The notes below the pieces were generated by a model. That model was not told the origin of the DNA. It made no database searches and saw nothing but the letters and a program-made list of their open reading frames with translations. From positions 99,013 through 131,012 of the forward strand of contig CAZXEQ010000006.1 in assembly GCA_964640155.1 (NCBI GenBank): a DNA stretch of 32,000 bases, read 5' to 3'. A program made the position numbers and the translations under genes. This document shows, one piece after another, positions 13,614 to 29,905 of the stretch. Each line of letters starts with the position of its first letter. The first letter of the stretch is position 1. Origin of the DNA: an uncultured bacterium. Lineage in GTDB: Bacteria > Auribacterota > JACPWU01.

Positions 13614-13638
13614 AATTGTTACCATTGTGTCAAAGCAT

Positions 13639-13719: not shown

Positions 13720-13721
13720 CG

Positions 13722-14627: not shown

Positions 14628-14650
14628 AGAATCTCTGAATAAGTAAATCT

Positions 14651-14672: not shown

Positions 14673-14792
14673 CATTTTACTAATTCAATATATTAATGCG
14701 ATTTTTGAGAAAAATGTCAAGGGATTTTGAGATCGAATTCTTAAGCTTGCTTTTTACTTCCCTTTTAAGAGAATTTGAGCTACTTTTAAAGC

Positions 14793-15041: not shown

Positions 15042-15043
15042 AT

Positions 15044-15391
15044 ATGGTTCACATGAGATTTCTTATTGATGAAGATGTTCCCGTTAAGCTTCTAAAAACT
15101 CTATCAAAATTAGGCCACGATGTGATACGAGTGGAACCTTCAACGAAAGATCCTGATGTTGCCAAATTAGCCAGAGAAGAAAAACGGATTCTCATCACAC
15201 TGGATAAGGACTTCAAAAATACAGTGCTTTATTCCCCAAAAGAATTCAATATTGTCTATATCCAAATTCATCCACCCTATGCAGATCGGCTTATAGAGGC
15301 ATTCCAAAAACTTCTCGATCAGACCAACAGTGAAGCGTTTACAGGACTTATCATCCTCGGAGAAAAAGGCCATTTGAGAATTGTGAAATAA
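15044..15391 (+). CDS. DUF5615-family PIN-like toxin candidate
   Basis: 115 aa. MRFLIDEDVPVKLLKTLSKLGHDVIRV...AREEKRILITLDKDF matches the DUF5615 N-terminal acidic and DxDF layout. An alternative start at 15053 (MRFLIDE) is at least as plausible. Confidence 0.75.
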   Translation: MVHMRFLIDEDVPVKLLKTLSKLGHDVIRVEPSTKDPDVAKLAREEKRILITLDKDFKNTVLYSPKEFNIVYIQIHPPYADRLIEAFQKLLDQTNSEAFTGLIILGEKGHLRIVK

Positions 15392-15418
15392 CTTTGAGAT
15401 AACAGAGCACCTTGATTT

Positions 15419-16087
15419 TCATGCATAAGTTGACGTAATATCATGAATAAGTTTTGGAATATAGGTCTCCATCCACTGACTTTCTTTTCGAGTCAAGACT
15501 TCCTTTGTCCCCCGACCAGAAGTAAGCTGTAAACATCGTTGAAGCTGAACAATGAGTTCCTTCACCTCCAAACTTTTGGCGAGATATTCCAAGGCCAATT
15601 TAAATTCTCCTGGATAAGTTTGATGAAGAAGACAAAGATCATAAAGATCGGTAGGCTCAATACGATCCACAATGCAAGAGAGCTTTTCAAGAACCATGTC
15701 TTTCTCGCACAAAATAGGACATCGCAATTGAAGATCGTAAAGCAATGTCGTAGGATGCCAAATCTTTCCAATATCCACTTTGATTTCTTTTCTCTTTGGA
15801 TAACTGACAAAGATTTGGCAAAAATGTTCCCCTCGTCGAGTGATACGACAGCTTATTTTTTCTTTCTTACATTTACTGACAACTTCCAGCATAGCCTTAT
15901 AGCTTGAAATGTCCTCTCGAGAAGACAGAACATCCACATCTCTGCTCAAACGAGACACTTTCGGAAGTCGCAAAGTTAACCAAGTTCCACCCGCTAAAGC
16001 ATAGTTTTCCTTGATCAAGGGACAAGCCAAGATCCAAGCAGCCAATGCGAGAATATCTTCTTTTGAAGGAAGATTAGGAATGCTCAT
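15419..16087 (-). CDS. Nucleotidyltransferase AbiEii/AbiGii-family toxin (type IV TA-like)
   Basis: 222 aa. YALAGGTWLTLRLPKVSRLSRDVDV resembles the GGTAL...R-S-D-D NTase core of AbiEii (DUF1814). It overlaps the upstream HTH gene by 14 nt. Confidence 0.65.
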   Translation of the reverse strand: MSIPNLPSKEDILALAAWILACPLIKENYALAGGTWLTLRLPKVSRLSRDVDVLSSREDISSYKAMLEVVSKCKKEKISCRITRRGEHFCQIFVSYPKRKEIKVDIGKIWHPTTLLYDLQLRCPILCEKDMVLEKLSCIVDRIEPTDLYDLCLLHQTYPGEFKLALEYLAKSLEVKELIVQLQRCLQLTSGRGTKEVLTRKESQWMETYIPKLIHDITSTYA

Positions 16088-16472
16088 AAAGACCTTGAAT
16101 AAGGTGTTTTCTCACAATGCGTTCAAGACGGGTTCTTCCATCACGAATATAACGGTTCACAACAGAACGTTGAATCATTTTGGGAATCAAATCAGGGGCT
16201 CGATTCAAAAGAATGTGCAGAACTTCGTCTTCATGAGGACGTTTTCTCTCACGCCAGAAAACAGAAGGGAAAGCGTGCCGCGCAGGCCTCCCAACTTTAT
16301 AATGCTGTCTGGCCCGACGGAATTTCTCAAGTTCCGATTTGGGAATAAACCAGATTTTCCCCTTACGTGTCACATGACTTAACCGTCCCTGCCGACAGTA
16401 ACAAGCCATCCGTTCCTTGGAAATACCTAACTGTAATGCCGCTTCTGTGGCCGTTAAAAATTCTGTTTCCAT
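16074..16472 (-). CDS. Excisionase/MerR-like HTH protein, putative cognate antitoxin/regulator of the AbiEii-like gene
   Basis: 132 aa. LTATEAALQLGISKERMACYCRQGRLSHVTRKGKIWFIPKSELEKF is an HTH_17/excisionase-type DNA-binding motif. It is translationally coupled to the NTase gene. Confidence 0.6.
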   Translation of the reverse strand: METEFLTATEAALQLGISKERMACYCRQGRLSHVTRKGKIWFIPKSELEKFRRARQHYKVGRPARHAFPSVFWRERKRPHEDEVLHILLNRAPDLIPKMIQRSVVNRYIRDGRTRLERIVRKHLIQGLYEHS

Positions 16473-16588
16473 GATAAATAATTATACACTATTGTGAATA
16501 ATTAAAAATAAAAATGACGGACCCCCATTCCGAGGATCAGTAATAGTTTAGCTACAAGAACTAGCCCTCAAGATTTTTATAGCCCTTC

Positions 16589-16674
16589 GGGCTTTTGCAG
16601 TCCCTTTGGGATAGGGTTAGGGTTCGCTGTACCTTTTTATTATTAATTTTTATCCTAAAGGACTGCAAAAAGCC
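16589..16674. repeat. Long imperfect inverted repeat (about 20-nt arms, about 43-nt AT-rich spacer)
   Basis: gggcttttgcagtccctttggg (16589-16610) against cctaaaggactgcaaaaagcc (16654-16674). The arms pair except for two single-nucleotide bulges. A small hairpin agccc-ttc-gggct precedes it at 16581-16593. Confidence 0.7.
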
Positions 16675-16721
16675 TGAGGAGAGGTACTACCCAGTAGGTA
16701 TAGTAGCTTTGCTATTCGTTG

Positions 16722-16759
16722 GTCATCCCCAAGTGCCACTATCGTGGTCGGGGATCCAT
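16722..16759. repeat. REP/MITE-like palindromic unit, same family as 13688-13719
   Basis: gtcatccccaagtgccactatcgtggtcggggatccat shares the termini GTCATCCCC...TCGGGGATCCAT with the other copies. Confidence 0.75.
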
Positions 16760-16822
16760 AGAAGTTTATGCCTGAGCGGTAAAAGCGATTCAGTGTTTCT
16801 CGAGGCTGCCTGCTTAGTCTTA

Positions 16823-16975
16823 TTACGCCATCATCTGAGTATATTCCAGAGAACGTCTGTCATTTCCTATATCGTGTGGGGCTTGAGAAGCAGGAGGTAA
16901 AAGATATTTTTCCAATGCTTTCTTCAGATTCTCTTGAGAACATTCCTTTTTCCTTCAATTTTTAGTGTGGATAAG
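16823..16975 (-). pseudogene. Frameshifted remnant copy of the 3' end of the giant ORF
   Basis: The minus-strand translation of 16823-16933 is ENLKKALEKYLLPPASQAPHDIGNDRRSLEYTQMMA-stop. The giant ORF ends EDLKKVLEKYLLPPASQGQHEMGNQRHAQEYAEMMA-stop, giving 24/36 identical by hand alignment. A 31-nt identical DNA core lies at 16882-16912 and 17575-17605. Upstream similarity (LKIEGKRNV against LKGENI) is in a different frame, and an in-frame stop intervenes. Confidence 0.7.
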
Positions 16976-17005
16976 CTATACTTAAGAATAGGAAGGAGAT
17001 CAGTA

Positions 17006-17221
17006 ATGCGTAAGAATAAATTTTTAGTTGTCATTGAAAAGGATGAAGATAATATGCTCGTTGCAACTGTCCCCGCTTTAAAAGGTTGCCATACACAAGC
17101 CAAAAACCTTCCTATCTTACTTGAACGCATTAAAGAAGCCATCCAACTTTGTCTTGAAGTTGAACGTCCTAAAGTTGTACCTCTTGAATTCGTCGGACTC
17201 CAAGAGGTTGAAGTCAACTGA
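17006..17221 (+). CDS. hicB: HicB-family antitoxin
   Basis: KFLVVIEKDEDNMLVATVPALKGCHTQAKNLPILLERIKEAIQLCLE is the HicB/UPF0150 fold signature. RBS ggaaggag lies 7 nt upstream of the ATG at 17006, and the track's 16934 start is unlikely. The stop overlaps the hicA start (ATGA-type, 17219-17223). Confidence 0.85.
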   Translation: MRKNKFLVVIEKDEDNMLVATVPALKGCHTQAKNLPILLERIKEAIQLCLEVERPKVVPLEFVGLQEVEVN

Positions 17222-17445
17222 TGCACAGGCTGACGCCTCTCAAACCCGCTGAAATCATTCGCATATTGAAACGTCACAGTTTCACCCCCATTCGCCAAAA
17301 AGGAAGCCACATCTACTTTCGACACATGGACGGTCGCTCCACTGTTGTTCCCTTGCATAAGGGGGAAGACATCGGCAGAGGACTCTTGCGCAGTATATTG
17401 CGGGACATCGAGCTTTCCTGGGAAGAATTCCTTTCCAAAAAATAA
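17221..17445 (+). CDS. hicA: HicA-family mRNA interferase toxin
   Basis: 74 aa. LKPAEIIRILKRHSFTPIRQKGSHIYFRHMDGRSTVVPLHKGEDIGRGLLRSILRDI is a canonical HicA/YcfA sequence pattern. Confidence 0.9.
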   Translation: MHRLTPLKPAEIIRILKRHSFTPIRQKGSHIYFRHMDGRSTVVPLHKGEDIGRGLLRSILRDIELSWEEFLSKK

Positions 17446-17515: not shown

Positions 17516-20500
17516 TTACGCCATCATCTCAGCATATTCTTGAGCATGTCGTTGGTTTCCCATCTCATGCTGGCCTTGAGAAGCAGGAGGTAAAAGATAT
17601 TTTTCTAATACTTTCTTGAGATCCTCTTGACTCCTAATATTTTCTCCCTTTAAATTAATAAGGACTGAATTCCAATAACTGAATCTGGTAATCATTTGAC
17701 AGATTAATTGTCTCTGATCGGTTGTAACAGGAACAGGGGTATTGGGAATTACTGATCCAGATGTTGTCATCTCTTGAAATATTTTTACTTCTCCATTCGA
17801 CATGTTAAGCTCAATACTTTCAGACTCATCATCTAGCTTTGACCAAATAATTTGTGCCAATGAAGCAATCGTTCGATCTTGTAAATTTTTCTGAATACCT
17901 TTAATTTCAAAATGAGCCTTTCGAACACGCTCAGCCTCTTCCACATCTTCTAATGCTTGTAATCTTTCAGCAAGAACTTCGGCTACTGCTTCTACCCAAT
18001 AGTGATTAAGCATTCCAATATCATGCCCATTCATCACCATACGGCGAGGTCTTCCTTCTGTCTCTCTAGAAGCAGCCTCTACGGTTTCAGCTAATTGTGT
18101 TACATCCAATTTTTTAATGTTCAAAAGTTGAATTGCTAAGGCTTTTGCAAGAGCTTTATTTAATTCTTCTAATTCTAAGGCAGTTACCTCTGCAGCTTTA
18201 GCCACTTGTTGAGTGGTTCTTGGATCTTTTTTATATCCATTATTTTTTCTCCATCGATGTCGCTCCACTTCTATTCTCAAAAGAATATTCAAAAGCTCTG
18301 GTCTTTCTTTAGCTAAATATTCTAATGTGTCTCGTCCTATGTATATACTTGGCAGTAGAATTGATTCTGTATTTCGTTCCATTGCCTTGCCCTGATATCC
18401 CATGTGAGCAAAGCTGATTCCATCCAGAAGCTCCATGGACGTATGTCCATGATTCCTTACTTTTGTTTCAGATAGAGCGCTAGTCCCCGAAGAGGAATCC
18501 ATGGAGGTGATTCCATGGATTTCCTCGTAGTGGGATTCATTTTTCTTAGAATCTCCTAAAGAAACAAAAGCTTGATCGCCCAATGCAAGAAGTCGCATAT
18601 TTTCTAAAGCCTTCTTCACTGTACGATCTAAGTCTCGATAAGCATCTGTCATGGTGTAATGTTTTAAAGCTTGATCTAAAGAGGACGTTTCTTCTCCCTT
18701 TTTAGCTAGCTCTCCTAATTTATTAAACATCACACTCACTGTTTTTCCCACTACTTGAGTTTCTCTTGTCGCTTTAACTTTAGTCAGAGTTTCACTCAAA
18801 GTTTTTCCTACTGTTTGATCACTGATAACGCCTTGAGAAAAATTATCATCATCAAGAGAAAGTGGTGTTCTTCGAGCCTTAAGCAAAGCCAGCCTCTTTC
18901 TAATAGTCACGACTTTGCTTTCTTTTCCAGCAAGGGTATTAAACATCCCATTAAAGCCTGGGGCTAAAATTTCGCTCAAAAAATCATCTGCAACCGTTGG
19001 AATTGCAGCGACCACCTCTTTCAATCTTGAAACAGCATTTTCTGGGGTTGTATCCGGTGAGTCAAGCCAGTCCGTTCTAATTTCTCTAACTAAGGTTTTA
19101 AATTCATCCGCCTCAGCAGAACTAGATATTTGAAAGCTAGTTTCAAGATGCCTTATCACTAGTATAACTTTTGGCACATTAGCGAAAGTTACATTCTCAC
19201 TTTCAAACCAATTCAATGCTGTTTCAAAAACAAATCTTCTTCTATTTTCATTCCCTGCATAATCTGACAATTCCATTATATGGACTAATATATAAGAAAT
19301 ATTTTCACCTACTACCTTTGTATTCTCAATCCATAGAGAAGCTAAACTAAAAAAGTTTGAAATTTCCCCAACAACCCTATTCTCTAATTCTTTTTCTGAA
19401 TCACCTTGCTTATGCATATTTATCATTATGTCATTAAGAGCTCTAAGCCTTTTTTTAAATTTCTCGCTAGAATAGAGCGCCACCTCCAATGCTATTACAA
19501 CGGTATCCGTATTCAGCTTTCCACTTTGAACCCACTTTAAAAGTGTTTTTAAAGTTTCTATACTTTCACGATTAGTAAACCTTTTCAGATCTGTGATTGA
19601 AGTTAACAATTTTTGAATTTTTTTAGAGTTTGCTTCTGTTATAAGATTTCTTTGCCTCATCTCAGAAAGTAATTTTTCAACCAAAGCATTTTTGAGAACA
19701 AGATTTACAGGATATCGTTCTTGAACTTCATCTTCTGTAGCTTCTCCATTAGTCTCATTGGCCATCACAATATGTCCAATCTCATGTTCCCAAAATTCTC
19801 TCTTGGCTTCTCGTGAAAGACTTCGAATGAATTGTACTTGTACTGGTGAAAGATAAATTTGGCGCAATTGATGATTGAAAGCTTCTCCACCTCGACCTGG
19901 ATGAGCAACAAGAAAACCATCAAATTGGCTGAGGCTTGAAATTTCATAAACACTTACATTATTCGCTTGAATGAACCCATCAGGATCCAAATCTTTAAGC
20001 TCCTCAGATGTTATAGCTCTTTGAACCTCACTAATAAAAGCTTCACGAATTGTCGTATTAACAGCCTCATGTTGTACTGCTGACAATTCTTCACCAGTAA
20101 TTGTAACGGCGCCAGCAGTATTTATAGGCTGTGTACCTTTTCTATTTAAATAACTTTCATAATCAATTGGGCTAAGCTGTTTAAGCAATGCCCGTAGAGG
20201 AGGCATACGCTTGTTCCAATCAAGAGCTAAAATTCTGACTATTTCTTTTTTTGTTGTTTCCAGAGTTTTTGAGTCTTTGCCTTCAAGAGCCTTCATTATA
20301 TAGTACAAACATGAAAAAACTGTACTATCGGAATTGGTTATCTTTCTTAGTTCTTCTATATATTCCCCACATGTCTCAATCTCCAATTTTCTTCTTCCTT
20401 CTCCATCAGTATTCGAGAAAAGACGAAGCAAATCAAAAAAGCCCTTTTTAAAAAAGATTAATACATCCTCTCGATCCATCTTTTGAACAATATCTGTCAT

Positions 20501-23500
20501 TAACAGGAGAATTGCCTGTCGATCTTCTGGCGAAAGGTTTAAACTGTTTAAAGATTTCCTCCATGATCGAATGTCTCTCCAATAAAGACCAGAAGAGCCC
20601 CATTTCTCTATCATAGCGAATAATAATTGTTCATATTCTCCATATTCTTTTGCATTTTGAATTTCTTTGGATATAAAGGATTCATCAGATTCTACGTCAT
20701 CTCGAATGGGTATAAATCCTAAAACACATCGACGAAGCTCTCTCGTTAATTCCATTTTTGTTTCATCTTCACAATATTCTGGTATAGCACTTAACAAACG
20801 TGGTTCAATCAAATCAAGGATTCTAAATGAAAATGGATAATCACTTTCTTCTAAATTTTCTAGAATCACTTGTCGCATCACCTGTCGAACTTGACTCAAG
20901 GGCAAATTCCCTTTTGTACTTTCTTGAATAACTGCCAAGCGTGTCAAGATTCCAAAGACCAAACGATCAGAAAACTCCATTTCCCAATAGCAAGGTTTTT
21001 CTGGCTTGTTTACTCTGTCTAATGTTTCTTGGAGGACTTGCCATTGCTGATGATTTAATAAATCGCGATCCATTTGTTGAGGTGTTGTATCAAGGCGGTT
21101 GGTGCGTCTAAGAATACCCGTATTAACTTGAGCACCTCGCCTAAAAGGTATAAAAATATGGTTTGAAAATGCCATTCCTACTGTTCCTCTGCTGCGCATA
21201 AAAAATTGAAGACCTACCCATCTCCATCCGATTCTCCAAATGCGAGCTGCATTTCTATCATCTGGGTCAGACAAAATCATTTTTCCAGACGGATCCATCA
21301 TAATATTAACTCTAAATCTACCAAATTGATCTGCATCTCTCGAGCAAGCTTGATAAAGACGATAAAACTCATCAGAAAGTAGCAACTCTACATTTTCTTC
21401 TATAATTTGATTCATCTCATTGGAAGGAGCTAAAAGCCTTTCATGACTTGCTTGAGCCAATATGGTTATTTCATCAGTTAATCTGCTACTTCTAGGAATT
21501 GACGAATTTCCAATCCCAAACCTAGTGTTTAAAAGCCATTCTTCCCTCTGCTGAGGAGTCCCTTGAAACAATTTCTTCAACTCTCTCATGGAGGGCCCAT
21601 CAAGTCCCATGTGTATATCTGATCGCTCCACAGCCACATGAAACAGAAATTTTCTTAATTCTGAAGGATTCTCAAGAAGTTCAAGATTAAGAAAAATTTG
21701 ATTTCGCTCAACAGAATAGTGGGCTCTTTGCCCTTTAATAAAAATGATCTTAGTGTTTTCTAGATGAAATTCTATTTCTAAGTCCTTGATAGCATCATCA
21801 AGCACTTTTAAATGTGCTGGAGAAATTTGAATTTTTTGTTCTTGCACTTTAATGGGCCCAACTTTACGTATATTACCTTGGGTATCACTAAGCTGCGTGT
21901 TATAGTAAAGATCTATTTGGGCCAATTCTCTCGAAGGTTTACCGCGCTTCTCCACTTTTGTTACGATCCCTACACATGCAAATTCTCCATTCACCAAAGC
22001 ATCGCGTATTCCACCGTCATCACTGAGCAAATGATCATAATCAGCTTGGATGACCCCCTTCTGCAATTTGGATCCCGTCAATGTCACATAACGATTGGAG
22101 GCAATATGCATAACAAGACCTGATAAGAAAATAGCCCAGGGAATCAAACTAGCTGAAAAAATAAGAGGAGCAACAAGACAAGCTACAATACCAATAGTAG
22201 ATATAATCGAAGGAATTAATATTTTCTCAAACAATGTTCTCTTTCTTCCTTCTAGTGGTGCATGATCCTGAAAAGCATGAAGTGCGACAAAAAGAATACG
22301 AGCTGCTACATAAGCCCATGGACCTAGAAGAAAAGTTAACATTAATAACCCTTCTTCAATCACAGGAACAATAAAATCTTCTTTTGTATCTTGACTGATA
22401 GGCTTCATCAGTAACACATTCAATGGAGAAACCAGTGCATCTGTTATTTTGTAAACAGGAATCAAAACACCTTTGCCTGCCTCCACAGACTTAACAGGCT
22501 CTGCCGATCTTGTCTCATCAGATTTAATCTCTACTTCACCTTCCCGTTCTCCACCTTTCTGCATCACGCCGCCTTCCATTGCATCAAAAGCCAGTGGACC
22601 ACTGACAGGACGTGTCAGCGTTGGTAAATTTCGGCCGATAGGATCTGTGCTTCTAAAACCCCTATTAGGAGAGTCTGAACGACCGAGAATACAAGTACTT
22701 ACACCCGTATAAAATCCGGCAACCTGCTCTGCATACGCACATGAAAATGTTAGAGAAACACCATTCCATATACCAACTGCAGCACGAGCAGTGACTTCAT
22801 GTTGATTTGGGAAAACCGTAAAAAGAGGTTCATTGGGAGGTGTGGCATATCGATACGCTGCGCCGATCAAAACAGGAAGATCTGATGGCACCCATGTAAT
22901 ACTTCCTCCATAAATAGATGATTCGGGTATTCCACCACTTGGTGGACGATACACATAAATTCTCTTTCCTGCATATCCCCATGCCGAAAGGCCCCAAGTT
23001 GAAGTTAATCCAACTACCACTCTCCAATCTAATGTTTCATAAGGGATATCCACAAGCGAAACCCTCATTCCTGACCAAACACGAACAGGGGCTGATTCTG
23101 GCAATGCGGCCCTTAAAGCAGCAACATTAAAATGAAAATTTGTATATAATCCTGACAACACAAACCTATCTGTCGGAATATCTGATCTAGGAGCTGAAAG
23201 AGAACTATAAGGGTATATAACCCCTGCTCTACCTCCAAAGTCACTTGTAGGTAAACCAACTATTCTTCCTCCTAATCTTAGTGCAGCTGCCGTATGAGGT
23301 GATTCATATGTCATATTTGCTTGAATATCTGCTCCAGGTGCAAAATAACCGCCTGGGGTTAAACTTCCTAACAATCTTAGATCACTGGCTATTGAGAGAC
23401 GATCTGAGGGACGATCTATGAGATTTCCCCAGAAAGAAGCTCCTAAATTGACTACAGCCCAAGATAAGGTGCGAATATTTCCTCGATGTCGATACGGAAT

Positions 23501-26500
23501 ATTTTGCCAGGTCAGCCCTGCATAAATAGGCATATGTCCATTAAATAATCCGTCCCATATTCTGACATTCGCTGTTGCTTCACGTAAATTAACTTGTGGG
23601 TCGACAGGCCGCGGCCCAATAAAAGTTCTTGTTAGTGGATCAATATCGGGTGCCTCATTTGGAAAAGAAAGAGAACCTGAAAAGCGATAAGTAAAGCGCC
23701 TTTCTTGAGCTGGTGTCAGTGTGGGCGTTATTGTTGATGTTGCTGATGCTTCAGATTCCGAAGCTGGTGGAGTTAATCTTCCTACTGGCAAAGAAAACCT
23801 ACCTGACCCTATAGGTGGTAAATCTGAAATTTGGGTTTGTGATACAGTCGTTTCTTGAACAGATTGTAGGGTCTCTTCTTCACTTGTTGTTGGCATTTCT
23901 ACCGGTTGAAGTCTTTCTGCAGCAGGAGCCGTAACTGTTGGAGGAACGGGCTGCGCTTGAGCAATCAAAGGCGCACTTAAAGCAGTTGCAACAGCAATAG
24001 CCAGGGCAGCAACATTAGATTTTATAGAAGATCTTTGAATAGCAGAAGGACGGGCATTTTTGCGTGGTTCTAAATTAACATCTTCTTTAATAACCTCTCC
24101 TTTACCTTTTTGCATTCGACTTCGATCTTGTCTTATTCCTGCATCTCGTGTTACACCCTGTGGAGTTTGTCTAAGGATGACCGTTGGATCCTCTGAACCC
24201 AAAGCTCTCTGAAAACGTTCGATATCTTCTGGTCGATCGAACCAAGGTATCAAAATACGTACAGGAATAGAACTGCCCCGTAAGCGATTCGCAAACTCTC
24301 CTGCAGCTTCTTCTTGTGCTGTCACAACTTCTGTAGAATAATGCATAGGTACAGCAACTACCGGTCTGATCACCGCTGCTGCTTCAGCAGCCTGCTGAGC
24401 ATCCATTGTAAATCCATGACCTCCAACGGGCAAAAGTGCTATATCCAGGTTATCATTTGAAAGATCACGCATTTCCGGAATAAAGTCTGTGTCTCCTGCA
24501 TGATAAAGCCTTCTTCCATCTGGAGTTTCAATCACATATCCTACCCAGTTATTTTCACGAGGATGAGTATTAGCAATAGGGTCAGGGTTCGTAGTATAGG
24601 CTGGCACTGCTTTAATCTTTATTCCCTCAATTTCGAGATGATCTCCAGGCCTTACCACATGCACGACATTCGGTGCTCCCGCCGCTCTCAAACGATCTGC
24701 TACATCCTGCGGTGCCACAAAAATAGTGTTTGGTCTAGAAATTAATGGAAGATATTGTCGAGGATTGAAATGATCATAATGTGAGTGCGTGATGAAAATA
24801 ATATCAGCAGGATGAGAACTTTCGCTATCGGACAACCAATAGGGATCAATATAAACTGTTTTATCTCCCACTTGAAAACGAAAACTTGATTCCCCATGCC
24901 AGAGCAAGTGCTTCACCAGTTCGTTCAACTCTTCCGGCGTCCGAGGTCTTCTTGAAGAAAGTCGAATGACGTCTGGAGCAGCATCACGCATATGTGCAAA
25001 TGCATTAGCAGCAGTCGGAGGAGCCCGCAATTGGGGTGGTGGTGTATTCGGACTTCCCATAAACATAAGAGATAGAGATATGCAAGCAGCAGCAATTGCA
25101 AAAATAGCAACAAGACAGCCTATTGACCCTCTATTTGCAAAGAAAACCTTTGAATCTTTTTTCGCTGTAGTTGCAGGAGAAAGTTTTTCCTTAACTAGAG
25201 AATGAAGCGCTTCGGCATGAGCTAAAGCATAAACTCGCTTTGGATCTTTTTCATCAGGAAACTTTTGAGCAATTTCCTTTTTCGCTTGATCATACGCTTC
25301 AATAAAACTTCTTACGACCTCAGGACTCATGGCCTGAACTTGCTCTTTAAACCTTCTAGACACAAACTCATCCTCAAATCCTGTCTCAGCCAATGCAGCA
25401 AGGGTGTGATAAATGTTGTTGGGATTATCTTTTGGAAGAGATGCGTCAAGCGGCAAAATTAGCATTTCATAGATTTCATGGAAAGCACCAATGGCATTGC
25501 CGGATGTGACAAAAACATGCAAAGTACCACTATCAATGTAAGAACCAGCCCGAATGGGCAACCCTTGCTCATCTCGAATGATTTCACTTTCTGGAATAGT
25601 ATGAAATTCTATTCTTTGTGCAGGTAGTGGTCGCTCACTTTGTCGACTAAGCTCAGCTAGGACTTCTTGTACATTTTCTCCACGCATCAGCCTTTGCACG
25701 AGAACAACATCTCTTTCAAAATCCGGAAACGCTGCTTTAAATTGTGGTGTCTGCGCTTGCTTGCCAAGGACCAAGCTTTGAGCAAGGCTCGTTGCATTTT
25801 CCATTACAGGAAACTTCTCAATTCCCTTTTCCTTTACTTTAGCTTCAAACTCTATTTTCTTCATTTTAGAGCCAATGGGTTTGGCGGTGGCAGACTTTGA
25901 TTGAATATTCTTGGGTTTTAATACCATAGCTCCAACAACAAATTTCGAACCCTGTGATCCAGTGGAGGTCCCCACCGGAACTCTCTCCCATTCCCAAAAG
26001 GTTTTTCCATCAATCCAGGGACGTACCTGATAATCAAATTTTTTCTCAACTTCTCTTTCTAATATATCTGTACCAAGCATCACCATGGGATTACCCTGTA
26101 AGATCTGGCCAGTCCAGTATCTTTGCATCCTAATTTCTGCAAGTGTATCTGAAAGATAAACTCTTCCTTGAGGCTGAACCCATCTTGCGAGTTGTTGAAT
26201 ATGGCGCGAAGGAAGCTCTGTTGCGAGCCGATTAAGAGCAGCTAAAAAGGAATGGTTATTTAAAATATTAGGACCAAACTTTTTTGAAAATAAATTGTGA
26301 CTGTATTGATAAATAAAAGAAGCCAACTGTGTCATTACAAGGGATGAAACCACATAAGAAGCTTGATAAGAACTCAAATCTATATTACGGATTTCAAGAG
26401 ATTGAATTAATTTTATTAACTGTGCTACAGCATATTCTGGCAAAGCAGAAGTTTTTACAATTTCTTCCACACGAATTGAAAAATCAGCCAAAACACCACT

Positions 26501-29017
26501 TAAATCCTCTACTCTGACAACAAATTTTTGACTTAAAGGGGAGCGACCTTTTTCTACTAAATATTGATCTAATTCTCGTAGAGTTGTTCGAACACCTTCT
26601 TCATCTATATCTACTACCACAATTCTTTCAAATTGATTGGCGAGTTTTTCTAAACCTTCAGGGGTATACTCCATACCATTTCCAAGCCCTAATAAAAGAG
26701 CTGTCCCAGAAAGACCCTGAGCTCCTTCTAGAATAAGATCGCGACTTCTTTGAATATGTCCTTGATATTCGGCGGCATAACGAACCAACCATTCCCTAAG
26801 CCCTCTATTTTGTTTCTGAAATTCAGCGATGATACCTTCCGTAGGTTTTGGTTGTTTCTTCACCCACGCCTTAGCCAGTACCACAAGCCCAGGTTGATTT
26901 TCGCCATAGCGTTTGATCAGAGCTTCTGTGATCTCTGCAGCATCACCTGTTGTTTCTCTTAACTCCTCAAGTTCGGAAAAAAATTGAGTAACGATGGTGT
27001 CAGGATGTGCTTTTTTGAGTGATTCAATGAGATTTGTTACTTGCTCTAAACTTAATTTCTCTAATGCCCCTGCCCATTGATCCAGTGCATCTTTGATGTT
27101 CCCTTGTACATTCATCCAAATTTGTACAAGTAAGTCTGCATCTGTCTGTTCATATCGACCTGCTGCAAATCTCTTTAAGATACCCCCATACAACACCGCT
27201 GGGGTAAGCGTCCATCTCCCATCTTCTGTTTTTTCATGTGCAGCTAGTTTCTTTTGAGAAAATTCTGTTTGCTCAAAATCATACGGGCCTTGCATACCTT
27301 TTTCATAAATACTTTCATCCACTTTGCCCTGCATGTTAGGGATTACAACAGCGTAAGATATTCCCTTCTCGTCTAAGATTCTTTCAATACCTTCGGTGTG
27401 AAAGCCACCTGTTACTAAAACTGTAGTTCGTATCTCGTAATTCGTATTTCGTAAAAATACTTGTTCTTCTATACTTCTTGCTTCCTGTCTCCTGCTTCGT
27501 GCTTCTATTTGCTTTAATGCATTTTCCGCCATAACTTGATCCCGAGCTAAAGCTAGATCGTAAAAATGAAGGGATTCGTTGAGGAGGGATGCTAAACTAG
27601 ATGTCATTGCGAGTCCCGATGTTTTTAATTGGGACGAAGCAATCTGACTCAAAGCATCATTCAATTGGATCGCCACGTCGGCCCTCGGCCTCCTCGCGAT
27701 GACATTATCTTTATATGGATCCCCGACAGAAACACTCGGGGATGACAAACCCTCAAATTTCCTGTCATTCCCGAAAGCTTGTATCGGGAATCCATTTTTG
27801 AGTCGTTCATTCAGTTCCAAAATAAAATTTTTAATATTTATTTCTTTAACCTTTTCCAATCCTTTTCTCGTCGCTTTCAGCGCTATCAAATCCTTAATCA
27901 ATCCCCACTCTCTTACCATACGTTCTTCTTGAATTACGTTGTGGGCTTTTGAAAGCTCTAGCATCAAAGTATTGATCTTTTGCTCTAGCTCTTCATAGAT
28001 AGATTCTGATTTAAGATCTTCTTGATGCAGCTGAAGCTTGTAGTAATGAGAAAGTCCTGGATAGTTTTCTTCTAAGGATAATCCATTTTTTTCATAAGCC
28101 TCTTTCAAATGAGTCAAATATTCCAATATTCCCATTCGACCTAATCGATATTCTAAACTCCATTTCACCATTTCTTTTAATTCCTCATTTTTGAGACGAT
28201 GGCTTAATTCATCTAAAAGCTTCTTTAAGTCTGATTGAATTGTTTTGCTTTGTATGGCTTTAGCTGTTTTTAGGATTTCAAGCATTTCTTTTAAGTGGCC
28301 ATCCAGCTTCTGTCCATTCTTTTGTAATAAAACATCTAATTGTATTAATGCTTCGTCTAATTTCAGCTCGCCTTCTTTAAGTTGATTTTGAAGGTTTAAA
28401 AGCTCTTTCATCTCGTGAATGTAAGTCTTTTCGATGATGTTTTTGATTTGTTCATCAATTTTGTTTATTTCAGAAGAAAGTTCTTTGGCAAGTCTGCGTA
28501 CTTTAAGAAAGGCTTGTAGATTTTCTATGTAAAGCTTGCTCTCTTCTATTCCATATAGATCCAGTGAGTTCTGAAGCCCTGAACGCAATGCCGCGTATTC
28601 TGCACCAGTAAGATAACCCTCTTTTAGAAATTGCAAGCCCACTTTGCCCCGTACTTTATCCTCTGGAAAAGCCTTCAAAAGTTCTAAATCAAATTCTCCT
28701 TCTGCTCCTTCCATAAAGACATTTTTAAGGCCCAGCTCTTTTTGAAATACTTCAAGGGTCTTAGCAATGTTGATTTGGGCTTCTTCTTGGCAATGTAAAT
28801 CACGAATGAGAATAAGGAGAGAATCCTTATTTTTACCTTCTTTGATTTTGGAAAGGGTGACATCCGATAGTTTCAATTGTTTTAGTTGATCTAAAACTGA
28901 GAGGTTTTTAAGTGTAGATGATGATGAAGCCGCTGAAGAAAGAACCTCTGCCATCGATTGATGGTCTGGGAAAATACAGTTCGCAAAGAATATAAATATT
29001 AAAAGGATTCGCAACAT
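17516..29017 (-). CDS. Giant (3,833 aa) multidomain, multi-TM protein of unknown function
   Basis: Uninterrupted 11.5-kb ORF, ATG at 29017, TAA at 17516-17518. Domain-level motifs are listed as separate sub-features. I recognise no overall family. Confidence 0.85.
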   Translation of the reverse strand: MLRILLIFIFFANCIFPDHQSMAEVLSSAASSSSTLKNLSVLDQLKQLKLSDVTLSKIKEGKNKDSLLILIRDLHCQEEAQINIAKTLEVFQKELGLKNVFMEGAEGEFDLELLKAFPEDKVRGKVGLQFLKEGYLTGAEYAALRSGLQNSLDLYGIEESKLYIENLQAFLKVRRLAKELSSEINKIDEQIKNIIEKTYIHEMKELLNLQNQLKEGELKLDEALIQLDVLLQKNGQKLDGHLKEMLEILKTAKAIQSKTIQSDLKKLLDELSHRLKNEELKEMVKWSLEYRLGRMGILEYLTHLKEAYEKNGLSLEENYPGLSHYYKLQLHQEDLKSESIYEELEQKINTLMLELSKAHNVIQEERMVREWGLIKDLIALKATRKGLEKVKEINIKNFILELNERLKNGFPIQAFGNDRKFEGLSSPSVSVGDPYKDNVIARRPRADVAIQLNDALSQIASSQLKTSGLAMTSSLASLLNESLHFYDLALARDQVMAENALKQIEARSRRQEARSIEEQVFLRNTNYEIRTTVLVTGGFHTEGIERILDEKGISYAVVIPNMQGKVDESIYEKGMQGPYDFEQTEFSQKKLAAHEKTEDGRWTLTPAVLYGGILKRFAAGRYEQTDADLLVQIWMNVQGNIKDALDQWAGALEKLSLEQVTNLIESLKKAHPDTIVTQFFSELEELRETTGDAAEITEALIKRYGENQPGLVVLAKAWVKKQPKPTEGIIAEFQKQNRGLREWLVRYAAEYQGHIQRSRDLILEGAQGLSGTALLLGLGNGMEYTPEGLEKLANQFERIVVVDIDEEGVRTTLRELDQYLVEKGRSPLSQKFVVRVEDLSGVLADFSIRVEEIVKTSALPEYAVAQLIKLIQSLEIRNIDLSSYQASYVVSSLVMTQLASFIYQYSHNLFSKKFGPNILNNHSFLAALNRLATELPSRHIQQLARWVQPQGRVYLSDTLAEIRMQRYWTGQILQGNPMVMLGTDILEREVEKKFDYQVRPWIDGKTFWEWERVPVGTSTGSQGSKFVVGAMVLKPKNIQSKSATAKPIGSKMKKIEFEAKVKEKGIEKFPVMENATSLAQSLVLGKQAQTPQFKAAFPDFERDVVLVQRLMRGENVQEVLAELSRQSERPLPAQRIEFHTIPESEIIRDEQGLPIRAGSYIDSGTLHVFVTSGNAIGAFHEIYEMLILPLDASLPKDNPNNIYHTLAALAETGFEDEFVSRRFKEQVQAMSPEVVRSFIEAYDQAKKEIAQKFPDEKDPKRVYALAHAEALHSLVKEKLSPATTAKKDSKVFFANRGSIGCLVAIFAIAAACISLSLMFMGSPNTPPPQLRAPPTAANAFAHMRDAAPDVIRLSSRRPRTPEELNELVKHLLWHGESSFRFQVGDKTVYIDPYWLSDSESSHPADIIFITHSHYDHFNPRQYLPLISRPNTIFVAPQDVADRLRAAGAPNVVHVVRPGDHLEIEGIKIKAVPAYTTNPDPIANTHPRENNWVGYVIETPDGRRLYHAGDTDFIPEMRDLSNDNLDIALLPVGGHGFTMDAQQAAEAAAVIRPVVAVPMHYSTEVVTAQEEAAGEFANRLRGSSIPVRILIPWFDRPEDIERFQRALGSEDPTVILRQTPQGVTRDAGIRQDRSRMQKGKGEVIKEDVNLEPRKNARPSAIQRSSIKSNVAALAIAVATALSAPLIAQAQPVPPTVTAPAAERLQPVEMPTTSEEETLQSVQETTVSQTQISDLPPIGSGRFSLPVGRLTPPASESEASATSTITPTLTPAQERRFTYRFSGSLSFPNEAPDIDPLTRTFIGPRPVDPQVNLREATANVRIWDGLFNGHMPIYAGLTWQNIPYRHRGNIRTLSWAVVNLGASFWGNLIDRPSDRLSIASDLRLLGSLTPGGYFAPGADIQANMTYESPHTAAALRLGGRIVGLPTSDFGGRAGVIYPYSSLSAPRSDIPTDRFVLSGLYTNFHFNVAALRAALPESAPVRVWSGMRVSLVDIPYETLDWRVVVGLTSTWGLSAWGYAGKRIYVYRPPSGGIPESSIYGGSITWVPSDLPVLIGAAYRYATPPNEPLFTVFPNQHEVTARAAVGIWNGVSLTFSCAYAEQVAGFYTGVSTCILGRSDSPNRGFRSTDPIGRNLPTLTRPVSGPLAFDAMEGGVMQKGGEREGEVEIKSDETRSAEPVKSVEAGKGVLIPVYKITDALVSPLNVLLMKPISQDTKEDFIVPVIEEGLLMLTFLLGPWAYVAARILFVALHAFQDHAPLEGRKRTLFEKILIPSIISTIGIVACLVAPLIFSASLIPWAIFLSGLVMHIASNRYVTLTGSKLQKGVIQADYDHLLSDDGGIRDALVNGEFACVGIVTKVEKRGKPSRELAQIDLYYNTQLSDTQGNIRKVGPIKVQEQKIQISPAHLKVLDDAIKDLEIEFHLENTKIIFIKGQRAHYSVERNQIFLNLELLENPSELRKFLFHVAVERSDIHMGLDGPSMRELKKLFQGTPQQREEWLLNTRFGIGNSSIPRSSRLTDEITILAQASHERLLAPSNEMNQIIEENVELLLSDEFYRLYQACSRDADQFGRFRVNIMMDPSGKMILSDPDDRNAARIWRIGWRWVGLQFFMRSRGTVGMAFSNHIFIPFRRGAQVNTGILRRTNRLDTTPQQMDRDLLNHQQWQVLQETLDRVNKPEKPCYWEMEFSDRLVFGILTRLAVIQESTKGNLPLSQVRQVMRQVILENLEESDYPFSFRILDLIEPRLLSAIPEYCEDETKMELTRELRRCVLGFIPIRDDVESDESFISKEIQNAKEYGEYEQLLFAMIEKWGSSGLYWRDIRSWRKSLNSLNLSPEDRQAILLLMTDIVQKMDREDVLIFFKKGFFDLLRLFSNTDGEGRRKLEIETCGEYIEELRKITNSDSTVFSCLYYIMKALEGKDSKTLETTKKEIVRILALDWNKRMPPLRALLKQLSPIDYESYLNRKGTQPINTAGAVTITGEELSAVQHEAVNTTIREAFISEVQRAITSEELKDLDPDGFIQANNVSVYEISSLSQFDGFLVAHPGRGGEAFNHQLRQIYLSPVQVQFIRSLSREAKREFWEHEIGHIVMANETNGEATEDEVQERYPVNLVLKNALVEKLLSEMRQRNLITEANSKKIQKLLTSITDLKRFTNRESIETLKTLLKWVQSGKLNTDTVVIALEVALYSSEKFKKRLRALNDIMINMHKQGDSEKELENRVVGEISNFFSLASLWIENTKVVGENISYILVHIMELSDYAGNENRRRFVFETALNWFESENVTFANVPKVILVIRHLETSFQISSSAEADEFKTLVREIRTDWLDSPDTTPENAVSRLKEVVAAIPTVADDFLSEILAPGFNGMFNTLAGKESKVVTIRKRLALLKARRTPLSLDDDNFSQGVISDQTVGKTLSETLTKVKATRETQVVGKTVSVMFNKLGELAKKGEETSSLDQALKHYTMTDAYRDLDRTVKKALENMRLLALGDQAFVSLGDSKKNESHYEEIHGITSMDSSSGTSALSETKVRNHGHTSMELLDGISFAHMGYQGKAMERNTESILLPSIYIGRDTLEYLAKERPELLNILLRIEVERHRWRKNNGYKKDPRTTQQVAKAAEVTALELEELNKALAKALAIQLLNIKKLDVTQLAETVEAASRETEGRPRRMVMNGHDIGMLNHYWVEAVAEVLAERLQALEDVEEAERVRKAHFEIKGIQKNLQDRTIASLAQIIWSKLDDESESIELNMSNGEVKIFQEMTTSGSVIPNTPVPVTTDQRQLICQMITRFSYWNSVLINLKGENIRSQEDLKKVLEKYLLPPASQGQHEMGNQRHAQEYAEMMA
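19772..19786 (-). other. Giant ORF: HExxH zinc-metallopeptidase motif
   Basis: REFWEHEIGHIVMANE. The HEIGH codons are atgtccaatctcatg on the plus strand. The context is GGEAFNHQLRQIYLSPVQVQFIRSLSREAKREFWEHEIGH. Confidence 0.55.
22080..22400 (-). other. Giant ORF: CPBP (CAAX protease / bacteriocin-processing, Abi) type intramembrane protease signature
   Basis: VIEEGLLMLTF has the EE of motif 1 at 22352-22357, but no Arg at +5. LFVALHAF is FxxxH, 26 residues later. LVMHIASN is HxxxN, about 57 residues later (22094-22114). All three lie within hydrophobic helices. The spacing matches the CPBP family. Confidence 0.5.
22700..23700 (-). other. Giant ORF: beta-strand-rich, outer-membrane-barrel-like region
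   Basis: Repeated amphipathic, aromatic-ended segments: FTYRFSGSLSF, RTLSWAVVNLGASFW, ADIQANMTYE, AAALRLGGRIVGL, FVLSGLYTNFHFNV, VRVWSGMRVSLV, DWRVVVGLTSTWGLSAWGYAGKRIYVY, VLIGAAYRYA, GVSLTFSCAYAE. A Ser/Thr/Pro-rich linker precedes the region. Confidence 0.45.
23949..24115 (-). other. Giant ORF: internal Met plus Sec-type signal-peptide-like segment
   Basis: MQKGKGEVIKEDVNLEPRKNARPSAIQRSSIKSNVAALAIAVATALSAPLIAQA-QP has a basic n-region, a hydrophobic core and an AxA (AQA) cleavage-type motif. The Met codon is at 24113-24115, in frame. Confidence 0.55.
24330..24895 (-). other. Giant ORF: metallo-beta-lactamase-fold hydrolase domain (UPF0173/Lactamase_B_2-like)
   Basis: VYIDPYW...ADIIFITHSHYDHF (the HxHxDH motif lies at about 24770-24790), then YHAGDTDF and LLPVGGHGFTMDAQQAAEAAAVIRPVVAVPMHY. 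Confidence 0.85.
25050..25130 (-). other. Giant ORF: transmembrane segment
   Basis: GSIGCLVAIFAIAAACISLSLMFMGSP is an uninterrupted hydrophobic stretch followed by a Pro-rich linker. Confidence 0.7.
26140..26750 (-). other. Giant ORF: class I SAM-dependent methyltransferase fold
   Basis: Motif I ALLLGLGNG (about 26674-26700). The acidic end of beta-2 is IVVVDID (about 26603-26623), and beta-3 is RVEDLSG. Motif IV-like ASYVVSSLVMTQL, and post-IV LARWVQPQGRVYLSD (compare LKPGG-x-l-x-sD). Confidence 0.65.
27428..27504. repeat. Two heptanucleotide tandem tracts inside the giant ORF
   Basis: 27428-27455 reads tcgtatc tcgtaat tcgtatt tcgtaaa. 27477-27504 reads cttgctt cctgtct cctgctt cgtgctt. They are translated as ...EARSRRQEARS...RNTNYEIRTT... 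Confidence 0.8.
27603..27795. repeat. Four consecutive palindromic repeat units inside the giant ORF, read through in frame
   Basis: The units are 27603-27644 gtcattgcgag...gacgaagcaatc, 27669-27704 gatcgccacgtcggccctcggcctcctcgcgatgac, 27716-27747 atggatccccgacagaaacactcggggatgac and 27764-27795 gtcattcccgaaagcttgtatcgggaatccat. The last two match the intergenic units at 13639-13719. Confidence 0.85.
28943..29017 (-). other. Giant ORF: N-terminal hydrophobic leader (signal peptide or signal anchor)
   Basis: MLRILLIFIFFANCIFPDHQSMAEV has a basic residue followed by a hydrophobic run. FANC is only loosely lipobox-like. Confidence 0.6.
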
Positions 29018-29285
29018 ATTCTCTTTTCTTTTTTGATGATTAGCTTACAGAACCTACAAGCAAAAAGTAGTATACCATAAAAAGCTCAAAACTCCAAATC
29101 TAGAGATAATATAATTTTATAATATACTCTTAGAGAATATATTATAAATAAAACAAAACTTATATTCCAATGAATATACCAATGCTAGGATAACCGATAG
29201 ACTCTTCATTAGATATTTTGACTTCATTTCCACGAGAAACCAGAGTATCATAGCTTCCAGAAGCCAAATAGAAAGAGAACTCCAA

Positions 29286-29564
29286 ATGAACTCCACCCTG
29301 CTTAAGGGACTATTAGAAGAACGAATTGTTTCCCTAGGTTCTAAAGATCTATCAAGATTTCCATTTCCCATCAAAGGGATTGTGAGAATATTAAGCAAAA
29401 AGGGAGACACGGTGGCCATTCTTTTCAGCAAAGAAGCGTTGGAAGAATTCGAAGAAGAACTGGATGCTACAGATCCCTCATTTCTCGCTTCACTCGAAGA
29501 TTCTCGCAAGTCAGGTCTGACCTCAGCTAAAGAACTCAAGAGGAAAATGGGTCTTAAGAAATGA
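29286..29564 (+). CDS. Phd/YefM-like antitoxin candidate
   Basis: 92 aa. GIVRILSKKGDTVAILFSKEALEEFEEELDATDPSFLASLEDSRKSG resembles Phd/YefM-type antitoxins. The stop overlaps the RelE-like start (ATGA at 29561-29564). Confidence 0.55.
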   Translation: MNSTLLKGLLEERIVSLGSKDLSRFPFPIKGIVRILSKKGDTVAILFSKEALEEFEEELDATDPSFLASLEDSRKSGLTSAKELKRKMGLKK

Positions 29565-29812
29565 CTTATGAGTTCACCAAACATGCTGAAAAGGAATTCC
29601 TCAAACTTCCGCTCAACATACAAGTGCGCGTTCTTAAAAAGATTGAATCTTTTCTTCGTACAAGCAATCCTCTTTCCTTTGCCAAACCCTTGGTTGGAAC
29701 GACTAAAACCTTCAGATTTAAAATCGGAGATTATCGAGCTATTTTCGATTGGCAAAAAGATTACATTCTTATATTGAGAGTTGGGCATCGAAGAGAAATT
29801 TACAAAAAATAA
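29561..29812 (+). CDS. relE: RelE/ParE-superfamily type II toxin (paralog of 475-753)
   Basis: 83 aa. FRFKIGDYRAIFDWQKDYILILRVGHRREIYKK carries the same GDYR...GHRREIY signature. Confidence 0.85.
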   Translation: MTYEFTKHAEKEFLKLPLNIQVRVLKKIESFLRTSNPLSFAKPLVGTTKTFRFKIGDYRAIFDWQKDYILILRVGHRREIYKK

Positions 29813-29905
29813 TTCAAGACGATCTAGATTTGCAATCACCCCCAACACCAGAAAAACAATCGCCCAAACCAGAAGCAAACCCATCAGACCACATTCGAAA
29901 AATTC

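Follow-up and report, generated by a model that had tools for sequence, protein, structure and literature searches.

An Intact 11.5-kb Gene in an Auribacterota Genome

The DNA analyzed here (the window) is a stretch of 32,000 nucleotides from an uncultured bacterium of the Auribacterota (assembly GCA_964640155.1, contig CAZXEQ010000006.1, forward-strand positions 99,013 to 131,012), in which gltBD, LysR, a resistance-nodulation-division (RND) efflux operon and toxin-antitoxin (TA) pairs neighbor one giant open reading frame (ORF) on the minus strand (17516..29017). As the original prediction, made from the letters of the sequence, had it, this is a single open frame of 11.5 kb, and it runs from ATG to stop over 3,833 aa. 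We consider it probable that the giant ORF is one real gene for a modular, Sec-targeted and membrane-threaded multi-hydrolase, one of a family of long mosaic proteins that has no name yet. Its product would open with a leader and a TIKI/ChaN-like head and continue as a series of cassettes, varying between members, with enzymes and zincin-like modules (HExxH/HExxE) among them: an orphan Rossmann-like region with an HExxE module and a transmembrane (TM) helix with an intact metallo-beta-lactamase (MBL) domain as cassettes 1 and 2, followed, as cassettes 3 to 5, by a presumably captured signal-peptide and beta-rich unit, a membrane module of three to four helices, and a helical C-terminal region where one zincin module appears intact (HEIGH...E) and two are degenerate.

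Frame 0 contains no stops over its 3,833 codons, against roughly one per 10-20 codons in the two shifted frames, and the probability of an open frame this long arising by chance is far below 1e-100. Scored with a codon model trained on the window's own housekeeping genes, frame 0 is positive in every segment (+0.16 to +0.31 bits/codon) and the other frames are negative, with the coding signal restricted to frame 0 even in segments that have no homolog at all. GC content at third codon positions (GC3, 0.21-0.33) is uniform across the cassettes and native, the distances of the cassettes in relative synonymous codon usage fall inside the range of gltB, gltD, acrB and other reference genes, and the higher GC of the MBL and beta-rich part stems from codon positions 1 and 2. 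The stop-free frame, its coding score and its native codon usage together show that the frame is real: the giant ORF is a genuine gene, coding throughout and compositionally native. It is also probably kept intact by selection, purifying selection having been measured on the parts that it has in common with a syntenic locus in a close relative (L001, discussed below).

Hydropathy analysis of the protein reveals six hydrophobic segments, at aa 1-19, ~1297-1319 and ~1668-1686 and in a block at 2215-2310. Every string quoted in the original prediction, namely the leader, the TM helix, the MBL motifs, the signal-like segment, EE/FVALH/HIASN and HEIGH, is present in the translation. Pfam and NCBIfam profile searches with the whole protein and with ten overlapping tiles (E ≤ 10) recovered the MBL domain (aa 1371-1590) as the only domain, a DnaB_2 match at aa 3155-3205 (23 bits against a cut-off of 22) having been set aside as a marginal helical match.

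A Conserved Head Domain Marks an Unnamed Family

The N-terminal hydrophobic leader (aa 1-22; 28952..29017) resembles a Sec signal or signal anchor by hydropathy, and a similar leader opens nearly all members of the family. Behind it lies the family-defining N-domain (aa 58-620; 27158..28846), delineated from homologs, a structural model, motif counts and weak PF04187 matches. Formerly described as a coiled-coil-rich module, it is, by its homologs and model, a conserved domain of ~550 aa in which an alpha/beta core accommodates a helical insertion of ~300 aa. The AlphaFold model, with predicted local distance difference test scores (pLDDT) of 80-93, has an apparently parallel core of five to six short strands (63-72, 99-102, 153-157, 530-536 and 553-558) amid helices.

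The signature residues of the N-domain are D73-x-H75 ... E103 ... R492-D493 ... H540, the second His sitting in GGFHT; an Asp stands two positions before the first His in 57 of 58 members, and the His-to-Glu spacing is 28 in 54 of the 58. Active TIKI enzymes possess a 2His/2Glu site in which the Glu lies 28 residues after the His, examples being Bcr135 (H85/E113) and RRSP (E3900-x-H3902/E3930) (PMC6254334), and a signature of this 2His/2Glu type is found in the N-domain (D73-x-H75, E103, H540). PF04187 (ChaN, Tiki superfamily) is the only family to recur among N-domain members, with sub-threshold matches for 2 of 16 full-length sequences and 4 of 10 cores from which the insertion had been spliced out, in the same register each time. 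On this evidence we regard membership in, or close likeness to, the TIKI/TraB/ChaN/Ere (erythromycin-esterase) superfamily as quite likely.

A first search with the N-terminal region returned just six relatives, all from Omnitrophota- or Auribacterota-type metagenome-assembled genomes (MAGs) and alike over aa ~27-614. Searching with the family alignment gave 43 N-domain loci in GTDB genomes, the hosts being Ca. Auribacterota (closest, 74%), Ca. Theseobacter exili, Omnitrophota, Elusimicrobiota/Endomicrobia and FCPU426, and ~30 metagenome proteins have the domain too; Ca. Auribacterota have been described as free-living fermenters. The domain is always N-terminal, in host proteins from ~520 aa to more than 5.5 kaa (thousand residues), most of which have no TM segment beyond the leader. 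By sequence comparison, the giant thus belongs to a recognizable, unnamed family that spans three to four phyla. The earlier statement that no described family has such a domain order stands for the exact order, which is unique, and falls in its wider sense, since comparable Omnitrophota mosaics are documented and the family itself can be recognized. As to whether homologs keep the domain order, the closest relatives lack three of the giant's cassettes.

Two relatives are particularly informative. P0009 (5,549 aa) resembles the giant in its N-domain (75%), in module 1 (64%) and in the C-terminal region, which follow one another as they do in the giant, around a 3,400-aa middle that is unlike the giant's and contains a protein kinase domain (Pkinase). 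L006, a protein of at least 3,957 aa from Ca. Theseobacter, has the N-domain and the membrane module TM3 in common with the giant; after TM3, at aa 3440-3957 (~20000-21544), it continues into at least five tandem repeats of ~95 aa with a PYFNGSY...LGFxLDW signature, and its whole 3,957-aa ORF matched no Pfam family. Elsewhere in the family the cargo consists of CofD/FBPase/PGM plus five helix-turn-helix (HTH) domains, of PGK/FBPase, of PGM/MPI/CofD, or of SLT (lytic transglycosylase), and P0019 is built with five HTH+module units.

Four family members (P0019, P0029, L005 at 9752-16903 and L015 at 480-10646) combine a Sec-type leader and no further TM segment with enzymes of cytoplasmic substrates or DNA-binding domains. 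The cargo embedded in such leader-only members includes PGK, FBPase, PGM, MPI and CofD as well as five XRE-type HTH domains, most of them directly before an HExxH module; what such cargo does is difficult to square with where it would be located. N-domain genes also often occur as tandem pairs (L009, L011, L016, L021, L028-L030, L034, L036, L040 and L042), especially in Elusimicrobiota/Endomicrobia. In these pairs a long gene of ~1,800-2,000 aa has a second one nearby; complete second copies measure 517-608 aa, and several others run off the end of the contig or of the retrieved locus, their lengths being minima. Such pairs would supply substrate for recombination between paralogs.

Cassettes Between the Head and the C-Terminal Region

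Following the head is an orphan region, M (aa 728-1039; 25901..26836), with a Rossmann-like beta-alpha-beta unit at GLGNG/VVVDID. These strings had been taken for motifs of a class I methyltransferase, a call that finds no backing in profiles or structure: M matched no methyltransferase profile in Pfam or NCBIfam, a PDB sequence search yielded no methyltransferase and only short-chain dehydrogenase/reductase (SDR) ketoreductases, at E~1 over GLGNG/VVVDID, and M shows no similarity to the true Methyltransf_23/11 gene that adjoins the family member at L002. A model of aa 717-1087, built with no alignment depth, reached a pLDDT of 30-75 with one beta-alpha-beta formed, and Foldseek searches with this low-confidence model gave weak Rossmann/LDH matches, methyltransferases appearing at rank 30 or lower with E~5. 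M is joined to module 1 (aa 1040-1282; 25172..25900), which has homologs and features a conserved GAFHEIYE (HExxE) helix. Module 1 is 34% identical to its counterpart in P0008, recurs in the SLT-containing protein, and is accompanied in P0009 by five more HExxE modules, six in total.

The TM helix noted after the supposed methyltransferase is present at aa ~1297-1319 (25061..25129; hydropathy 2.58) and conserved in L001. It leads into the MBL-fold hydrolase domain (aa 1371-1590; 24248..24907), which is UPF0173-like by both profiles and PDB matches and for which the earlier assignment is confirmed: PF13483 (Lactamase_B_3) scores 94.5 bits against a cut-off of 24 (E=8.5e-27) and PF12706 80.4 against 27, UPF0173 hydrolases in the PDB match down to E=3e-24 (3kl7), and the metal-binding motifs are intact (HSHYDH at 1411, THPREN, GDTD and PMHY). 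PRK00685 reaches E=9e-33, and the score of the domain stays below the NCBIfam equivalog cut-off (113.7 against 144).

A Sec-signal-like segment follows at aa ~1650-1688 (RKNARPSAIQRSSIKS-NVAALAIAVATALSAPLIAQA|QP; 23954..24070) and opens a cassette that is absent from L001. Predicted earlier as an internal signal peptide, it is real as a sequence feature, with a basic n-region, a hydrophobic core and an AQA|Q end with Ala at -3 and -1, in the n-h-c layout of Sec signals. Downstream, a Pro/Thr/Ser-rich linker (aa 1689-1789) precedes a beta-rich orphan region (aa 1790-2150; the two together at 22568..23953), as judged from composition and beta periodicity. The beta-rich character noted before holds good, the ratio of beta to alpha hydrophobic moments over aa 1790-2150 (1.58) being the highest in the protein, with 10.5% Gly and 0.3% Lys. 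Genome and metagenome searches found no homolog of the beta region, and neither Pfam nor NCBIfam has a family matching it; no outer-membrane beta-barrel profile was among the matches at E ≤ 10. Outer-membrane barrels are assembled by the beta-barrel assembly machinery (BAM) from a free C-terminus bearing a beta-signal. The beta region is internal, has no free C-terminus and runs directly into inner-membrane helices. A possible duplication of the linker around the beta cassette is marginal (a common MQKG and 26% identity over 23 aa).

These helices form TM3, a block of three to four (aa 2179-2324; 22046..22483) with the motifs IEEGLL, LHAFQD and HIASN and with homologs in L001 and L006. In L006 it is found at E=4e-26 with all three motifs kept, in a Ca. 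Theseobacter protein whose N-domain is just ~31% identical to the giant's; retention of these residues at such a distance argues that the block is a conserved membrane module, and against L001 its dN/dS (ratio of nonsynonymous to synonymous divergence) is 0.12. CPBP/Rce1 proteases carry EExxxR, FxxxH and HxxxN/D on successive TM helices. Of the CPBP call made earlier, the residues survive, EE, F..LH and HIASN being present and conserved in the giant and L006 (EE...26...FxxxH...57...HxxxN), and the family assignment finds no profile support: PF02517 matched neither the giant at E ≤ 10 nor the L001 and L006 homologs at E ≤ 1, a three-sequence TM3 profile found nothing in the PDB, Rce1 included, the Arg of EExxxR is missing from all three proteins, and the third motif is absent from L001 as well. 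From its sequence TM3 can be taken as a membrane module that is conserved and probably has buried polar residues, and as no more than a candidate member of the CPBP family.

A Zincin-Like Module in the Helical C-Terminal Region

Beyond TM3 come module 2 (aa 2330-2505; 21503..22030), whose family motif AHYSxGRNQIYLD...HExxER has degenerated to FHVAVER in the giant, and module 3 (aa 2955-3130; 19628..20155), a putative zincin-like metallopeptidase with H3039, H3078-E3079-x-x-H3082 and E3095. The HEIGH string recorded at 3078 thus proves to belong to a conserved module with the pattern HPGRGG...IY(L/M)SP...HExxH...E, in which the 26 sequences compared never depart from H3078, H3082 and E3095 and seldom from E3079 (≥90% conserved). 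Zincins are defined by a core fold and by HExxH plus a downstream Glu (PMC5512222). The model of module 3 (pLDDT 84.7) comprises, in order, an N-terminal helix (41-56), three strands (83-86, 100-102 and 114-117), the HExxH helix (130-149) and, consecutively, the Glu helix (156-162), and so displays both the two helices and the core-fold elements of that published description. Module 3 has no match in Pfam or among PDB sequences. Its Foldseek neighbors are led by ZMPSTE24 (E=0.03, probability 0.84), followed by BlaR1, the "zincin-like" structural-genomics protein 3e11 and serralysins, and in the viral BFVD library they are SprT-, IrrE- and Zn-protease-like (best E=0.05); no single one is significant, and all point the same way.

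The remaining helical region, common to P0009 and delimited by homologs (aa 3112-3700; 17918..19684), includes the degenerate module 4 (RIEVERHRW). A word-indexed search with the C-terminal 1,530 aa gave nothing, and an exhaustive HMMER search with the same stretch retrieved 41 proteins, most of which also have the N-domain. The idea that the four HExx(H/E)-type modules are copies of one domain received weak profile support (modules 2 and 3 are linked at E~1e-3 and 3 and 4 at E~2e-3 in profile-profile comparison, and module 1 is unrelated), and they are handled here as separate module types.

The Syntenic Relative and Probable In-Frame Cassette Exchange

At L001, the syntenic locus of a close relative with flanking gltB, LysR and AbiEii 92-97% identical to those of the window, the giant's place is taken by an 811-aa gene and an overlapping 647-aa gene that together amount to N-domain, TM helix, MBL and TM3. 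Missing from them are aa ~728-1282 (M and module 1), ~1658-2180 (signal and beta) and 2311-3833 (the C-terminal region). The two L001 ORFs (834-5179) overlap by 34 nt, with what looks like a frameshift immediately ahead of the MBL domain, and the L001 N-domain has Arg instead of the conserved His75; the split gene may be a decaying copy or reflect a sequencing error.

Over the parts common to the giant and L001, dN/dS is 0.12-0.34, the upper value being that of the MBL domain, as compared with 0.03 for gltB. The synonymous divergence (dS) of these parts, 0.8-1.7, is 2-4 times that of gltB (0.42), which suggests allelic or paralog exchange.

Relics of earlier gene ends flank the giant on both sides. 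Upstream, ORF X (255 aa; 29117..29884 on the minus strand) starts with an N-terminal TM helix, matches no Pfam family and has an L001 homolog (84% at the nucleotide level) that is fused in frame after TM3, the junction lying inside a TM helix; its dN/dS is 0.39 and its dS of 0.29 is below that of the giant's modules. Downstream, at 16823..16937 on the minus strand, lies a diverged duplicate (83%) of the giant's last 115 nt, stop codon included (17516-17630), at a distance of 693 bp; this duplicate is the relic of an earlier gene end. Between the two copies a 144-aa ORF (16924-17358) matches no Pfam family, and part of the interval is homologous to the HicB-like gene of L001. The junction of TM3 with the C-terminal region (HIASNxYVT...LQKG) is conserved in the distant L006. 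The comparisons with L001 and P0009, the relics and this junction all fit in-frame cassette exchange and speak against an assembly artefact, and we infer that the exact architecture of the giant, so far unique, probably arose by such exchange between paralogs.

A Probable Multi-Hydrolase at the Cell Envelope and Alternative Readings

At least three hydrolase-type centers with seemingly intact catalytic signatures, one TIKI-like, one MBL and one zincin, are combined in the chain, and they make an envelope-associated multi-hydrolase the best-supported reading. The leader would send the chain to the Sec machinery, so that the TIKI-like head, M and module 1 come to lie outside; the helix at ~1300 would bring it back into the cytoplasm, where the MBL domain would reside; the signal-like segment at ~1670 would export the linker and the beta region; and the TM3 block would return the C-terminal zincin region to the inside. 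The product may bring several hydrolases together on one platform at the envelope or may act on other cells, as has been proposed for the long proteins of Omnitrophota.

Several points weigh against this picture. The giant protein forms a cluster of its own and is known from a single MAG contig, and a search for an independent contig with the cassette junctions, including two metagenome scans (beta region; TM3 plus C-terminal region), found none. The topology follows solely from hydropathy and the positive-inside rule, and the helix at 1297-1319 breaks that rule in the preferred arrangement, which thus has one violation against two in the alternative one. With most relatives lacking TM segments beyond the leader, homologous modules would face one side of the membrane in some members and the other side in others, and ATP-dependent cargo such as the kinase and PGK fits poorly with a position outside the cytoplasm. 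Finally, the TIKI assignment draws on motifs and sub-threshold matches, and Foldseek searches with a 1,200-aa composite model gave no significant match for the N-domain.

The same modules could, alternatively, make the giant a polyprotein that signal peptidase, at AQA|Q (aa 1688/1689), and its own zincin-like and/or TIKI-like modules cut into pieces destined for different compartments or for release in a target cell, a possibility to which we give a low probability. The internal signal has the full n-h-c layout with Ala at -3 and -1, the HExxH...E set of module 3 and the 2His/acidic set of the N-domain are intact, and zincin-type modules stand between cargo domains in relatives (the five HTH+module units of P0019, the six HExxE modules of P0009), an arrangement that matches polyvalent proteins with proposed autoprocessing (PMC5512222) and recalls MARTX toxins, which are processed mosaics with a TIKI-family effector (PMC6254334). 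However, two of the four modules are degenerate in the giant (FHVAVER, RIEVERH), homology between module types is weak, the internal signal-like helix could equally be an uncleaved TM segment, and the cleavage sites and fragments are purely predicted. Processing would in any case be compatible with a multi-hydrolase at the envelope rather than a true alternative to it. Extended to the whole family, the idea would give viral polyproteins and the polyvalent proteins of phages a Sec-targeted equivalent in cells, with cargo acquired by in-frame capture, the product cut by the constant TIKI-like head, by the zincin modules between the cargo and, at internal signal sequences, by host signal peptidase, and the enzymes delivered to separate compartments or into another cell; this we think rather unlikely.

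It is improbable, on the other hand, that the ORF is an assembly chimera of paralogs from co-occurring strains or a recently fused, decaying gene. Its singleton status, the absence of independent contigs found with the beta or C-terminal regions, the gene-end relics at both flanks, a syntenic relative with merely 811 plus 647 aa at this place (themselves frameshifted) and the resemblance of the giant to P0009-type ends around an L001-type core would all suit such an origin, but each of the five or more junctions preserves the frame, the 3,833 codons contain no stop, and the cassettes are alike, and native, in codon usage and GC3. In addition, the relics, at 83-84% identity, are old diverged duplications and not collapsed repeats, the TM3-to-C junction is kept in L006, P0009 independently shows the same N...module 1...C succession, and N-domain ORFs of similar length exist in other genomes. 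Least probable is an envelope-spanning machine in which one chain unites an S-adenosylmethionine-dependent methyltransferase, a beta-barrel of the outer membrane and an intramembrane protease of the CPBP type. Although its motif strings stand in the right order with plausible spacing, EE, LH and HIASN are conserved in a distant homolog, beta periodicity is strong behind a signal-like segment and GLGNG/VVVDID is modeled as beta-alpha-beta, neither the giant nor the TM3 homologs matched a methyltransferase, PF02517 or barrel family at E ≤ 10, PDB searches produced no matches (Rce1 not found, SDR reductases alone at E~1 on the Rossmann part), EExxxR lacks its Arg, inner-membrane helices tether the beta region at its C-terminal end and make it unfit for normal barrel assembly unless cleaved, and the M and beta cassettes are missing from the closest relatives, which is not what a co-evolved machine would look like.

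Relation to Known Giant and Mosaic Proteins

Very long proteins of Omnitrophota feature a signal peptide, scattered TM segments and embedded enzymes of cytoplasmic type (10.1101/2023.11.21.568195; 10.64898/2026.06.07.730766). The giant resembles them (West-Roberts et al. 2023) in that one enormous ORF, of which Pfam recognizes little, encodes a signal peptide and scattered TM segments; they embed methyltransferase, phosphoglucomutase and other cytoplasmic-type enzymes, and some Omnitrophota proteins bear the very N-domain of the giant. Unlike those proteins, given there as at least 10-100 kaa, it measures 3.8 kaa and comes from Auribacterota, and their hallmark SecA-DEAD, C39/S8 peptidase and dockerin domains were not found in it by the profile searches of the whole protein and tiles. 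Conversely, keyword searches of the Omnitrophota giant-protein papers found neither a TIKI-like N-domain nor zincin-type modules.

The polyvalent proteins of phages and conjugative elements unite disparate domains with interspersed zincins, for which a role in autoprocessing has been proposed (Iyer et al. 2017, PMC5512222). With them the giant shares many unrelated catalytic domains, interspersed zincin-like HExxH...E modules and extensive mosaicism, and module 3 fits the core fold described for their zincins (PMC5512222). In contrast to them, the giant is chromosomal, lying between gltBD/LysR and TA genes with no phage or conjugation genes in the 32 kb, and it has a Sec-type leader and TM segments; polyvalent cargo is anti-restriction or DNA-directed, whereas that of the giant's family is made up of metabolic-type enzymes and hydrolases. 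MARTX toxins with RRSP (PMC6254334) are giant secreted mosaics of exchangeable enzyme domains that include a TIKI-superfamily domain with a 2His/2Glu site and a 28-residue His-to-Glu spacing, and the giant, probably exported as well, resembles them in mosaic build and in this spacing. In MARTX, however, the TIKI domain is a swappable effector and in the giant's family the TIKI-like domain is the constant N-terminal head; no eukaryotic or other target is evident for the family, and neither RTX/glycine-rich repeats nor a cysteine protease domain turned up in the giant in the same profile searches.

Individual domains can be compared in the same manner. Like the UPF0173/Lactamase_B_3 hydrolases (PDB 3kl7; TM_1162, 3x2z), aa 1371-1590 cover the whole domain with HxHxDH and the His/Asp/His ligands; those hydrolases are free-standing proteins of ~230 aa, whereas the giant's MBL domain sits between a TM helix and a signal-like segment, and, with a score below the NCBIfam equivalog cut-off, the match does not imply orthology. 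TM3 is like CPBP/Rce1 (PF02517) in its ~95-aa hydrophobic block with EE, FxxxH and HxxxN in canonical order and at similar spacing, and unlike it in the want of any profile or PDB match for the three TM3 homologs, in the missing Arg of EExxxR and in the third motif missing from L001.

The giant lacks defining features of each class, be it the size and hallmarks of the Omnitrophota giants, the mobile-element context of polyvalent proteins, or the RTX repeats and cysteine protease of MARTX; it is a variant of the very long mosaics reported from Omnitrophota and not a wholly new kind of system. The analysis identifies a recognizable head domain and two to three recurrent zincin-type modules outside Pfam and NCBIfam. 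Together with the modules, the head, with its TIKI-type signature, opens a way into some of the "dark" long proteins that PVC-related and candidate phyla encode, and, turned into profiles, the N-domain and zincin modules could annotate hundreds of large orphan ORFs. Comparison of the locus with L001 further illustrates a mode of growth in which the protein gains or exchanges entire cassettes in frame, a complete unit with its own signal peptide among them, and purifying selection continues to act on the modules held in common. If it is true that the modules process the chain, the family would represent a bacterial chromosomal polyprotein system.

Genomic Neighborhood

Besides the absence of phage and conjugation genes, scans of the 32-kb window found no tRNA or Rfam elements. 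The TA-dense surroundings described in the original prediction are borne out by AbiEii/HTH_17, DUF433/DUF5615 and ParE: the TA pairs at 14793-16472 and 475-753 comprise DUF433/DUF5615 (PIN-like), HTH_17/AbiEii and ParE. L001 has an additional HicA/HicB directly upstream of its copy, and HicB-like fragments occur at both ends of the variable segment, where they may have acted as recombination sites. In the RND operon, a 263-aa ORF (4758-5549, minus strand) with no Pfam match occupies the place where a periplasmic adaptor is expected, flanked by the AcrB-type pump (1603-4767) on one side and the OEP outer-membrane factor (5546-6859) on the other. Promoter and terminator scans of the region were at chance level; the best sigma-70-like match, TTGGAA-18-TATAAT (10/12; 29141-29170, minus strand), falls within the 3' end of ORF X, ~125 nt ahead of the start codon of the giant, and is given as a pointer only.

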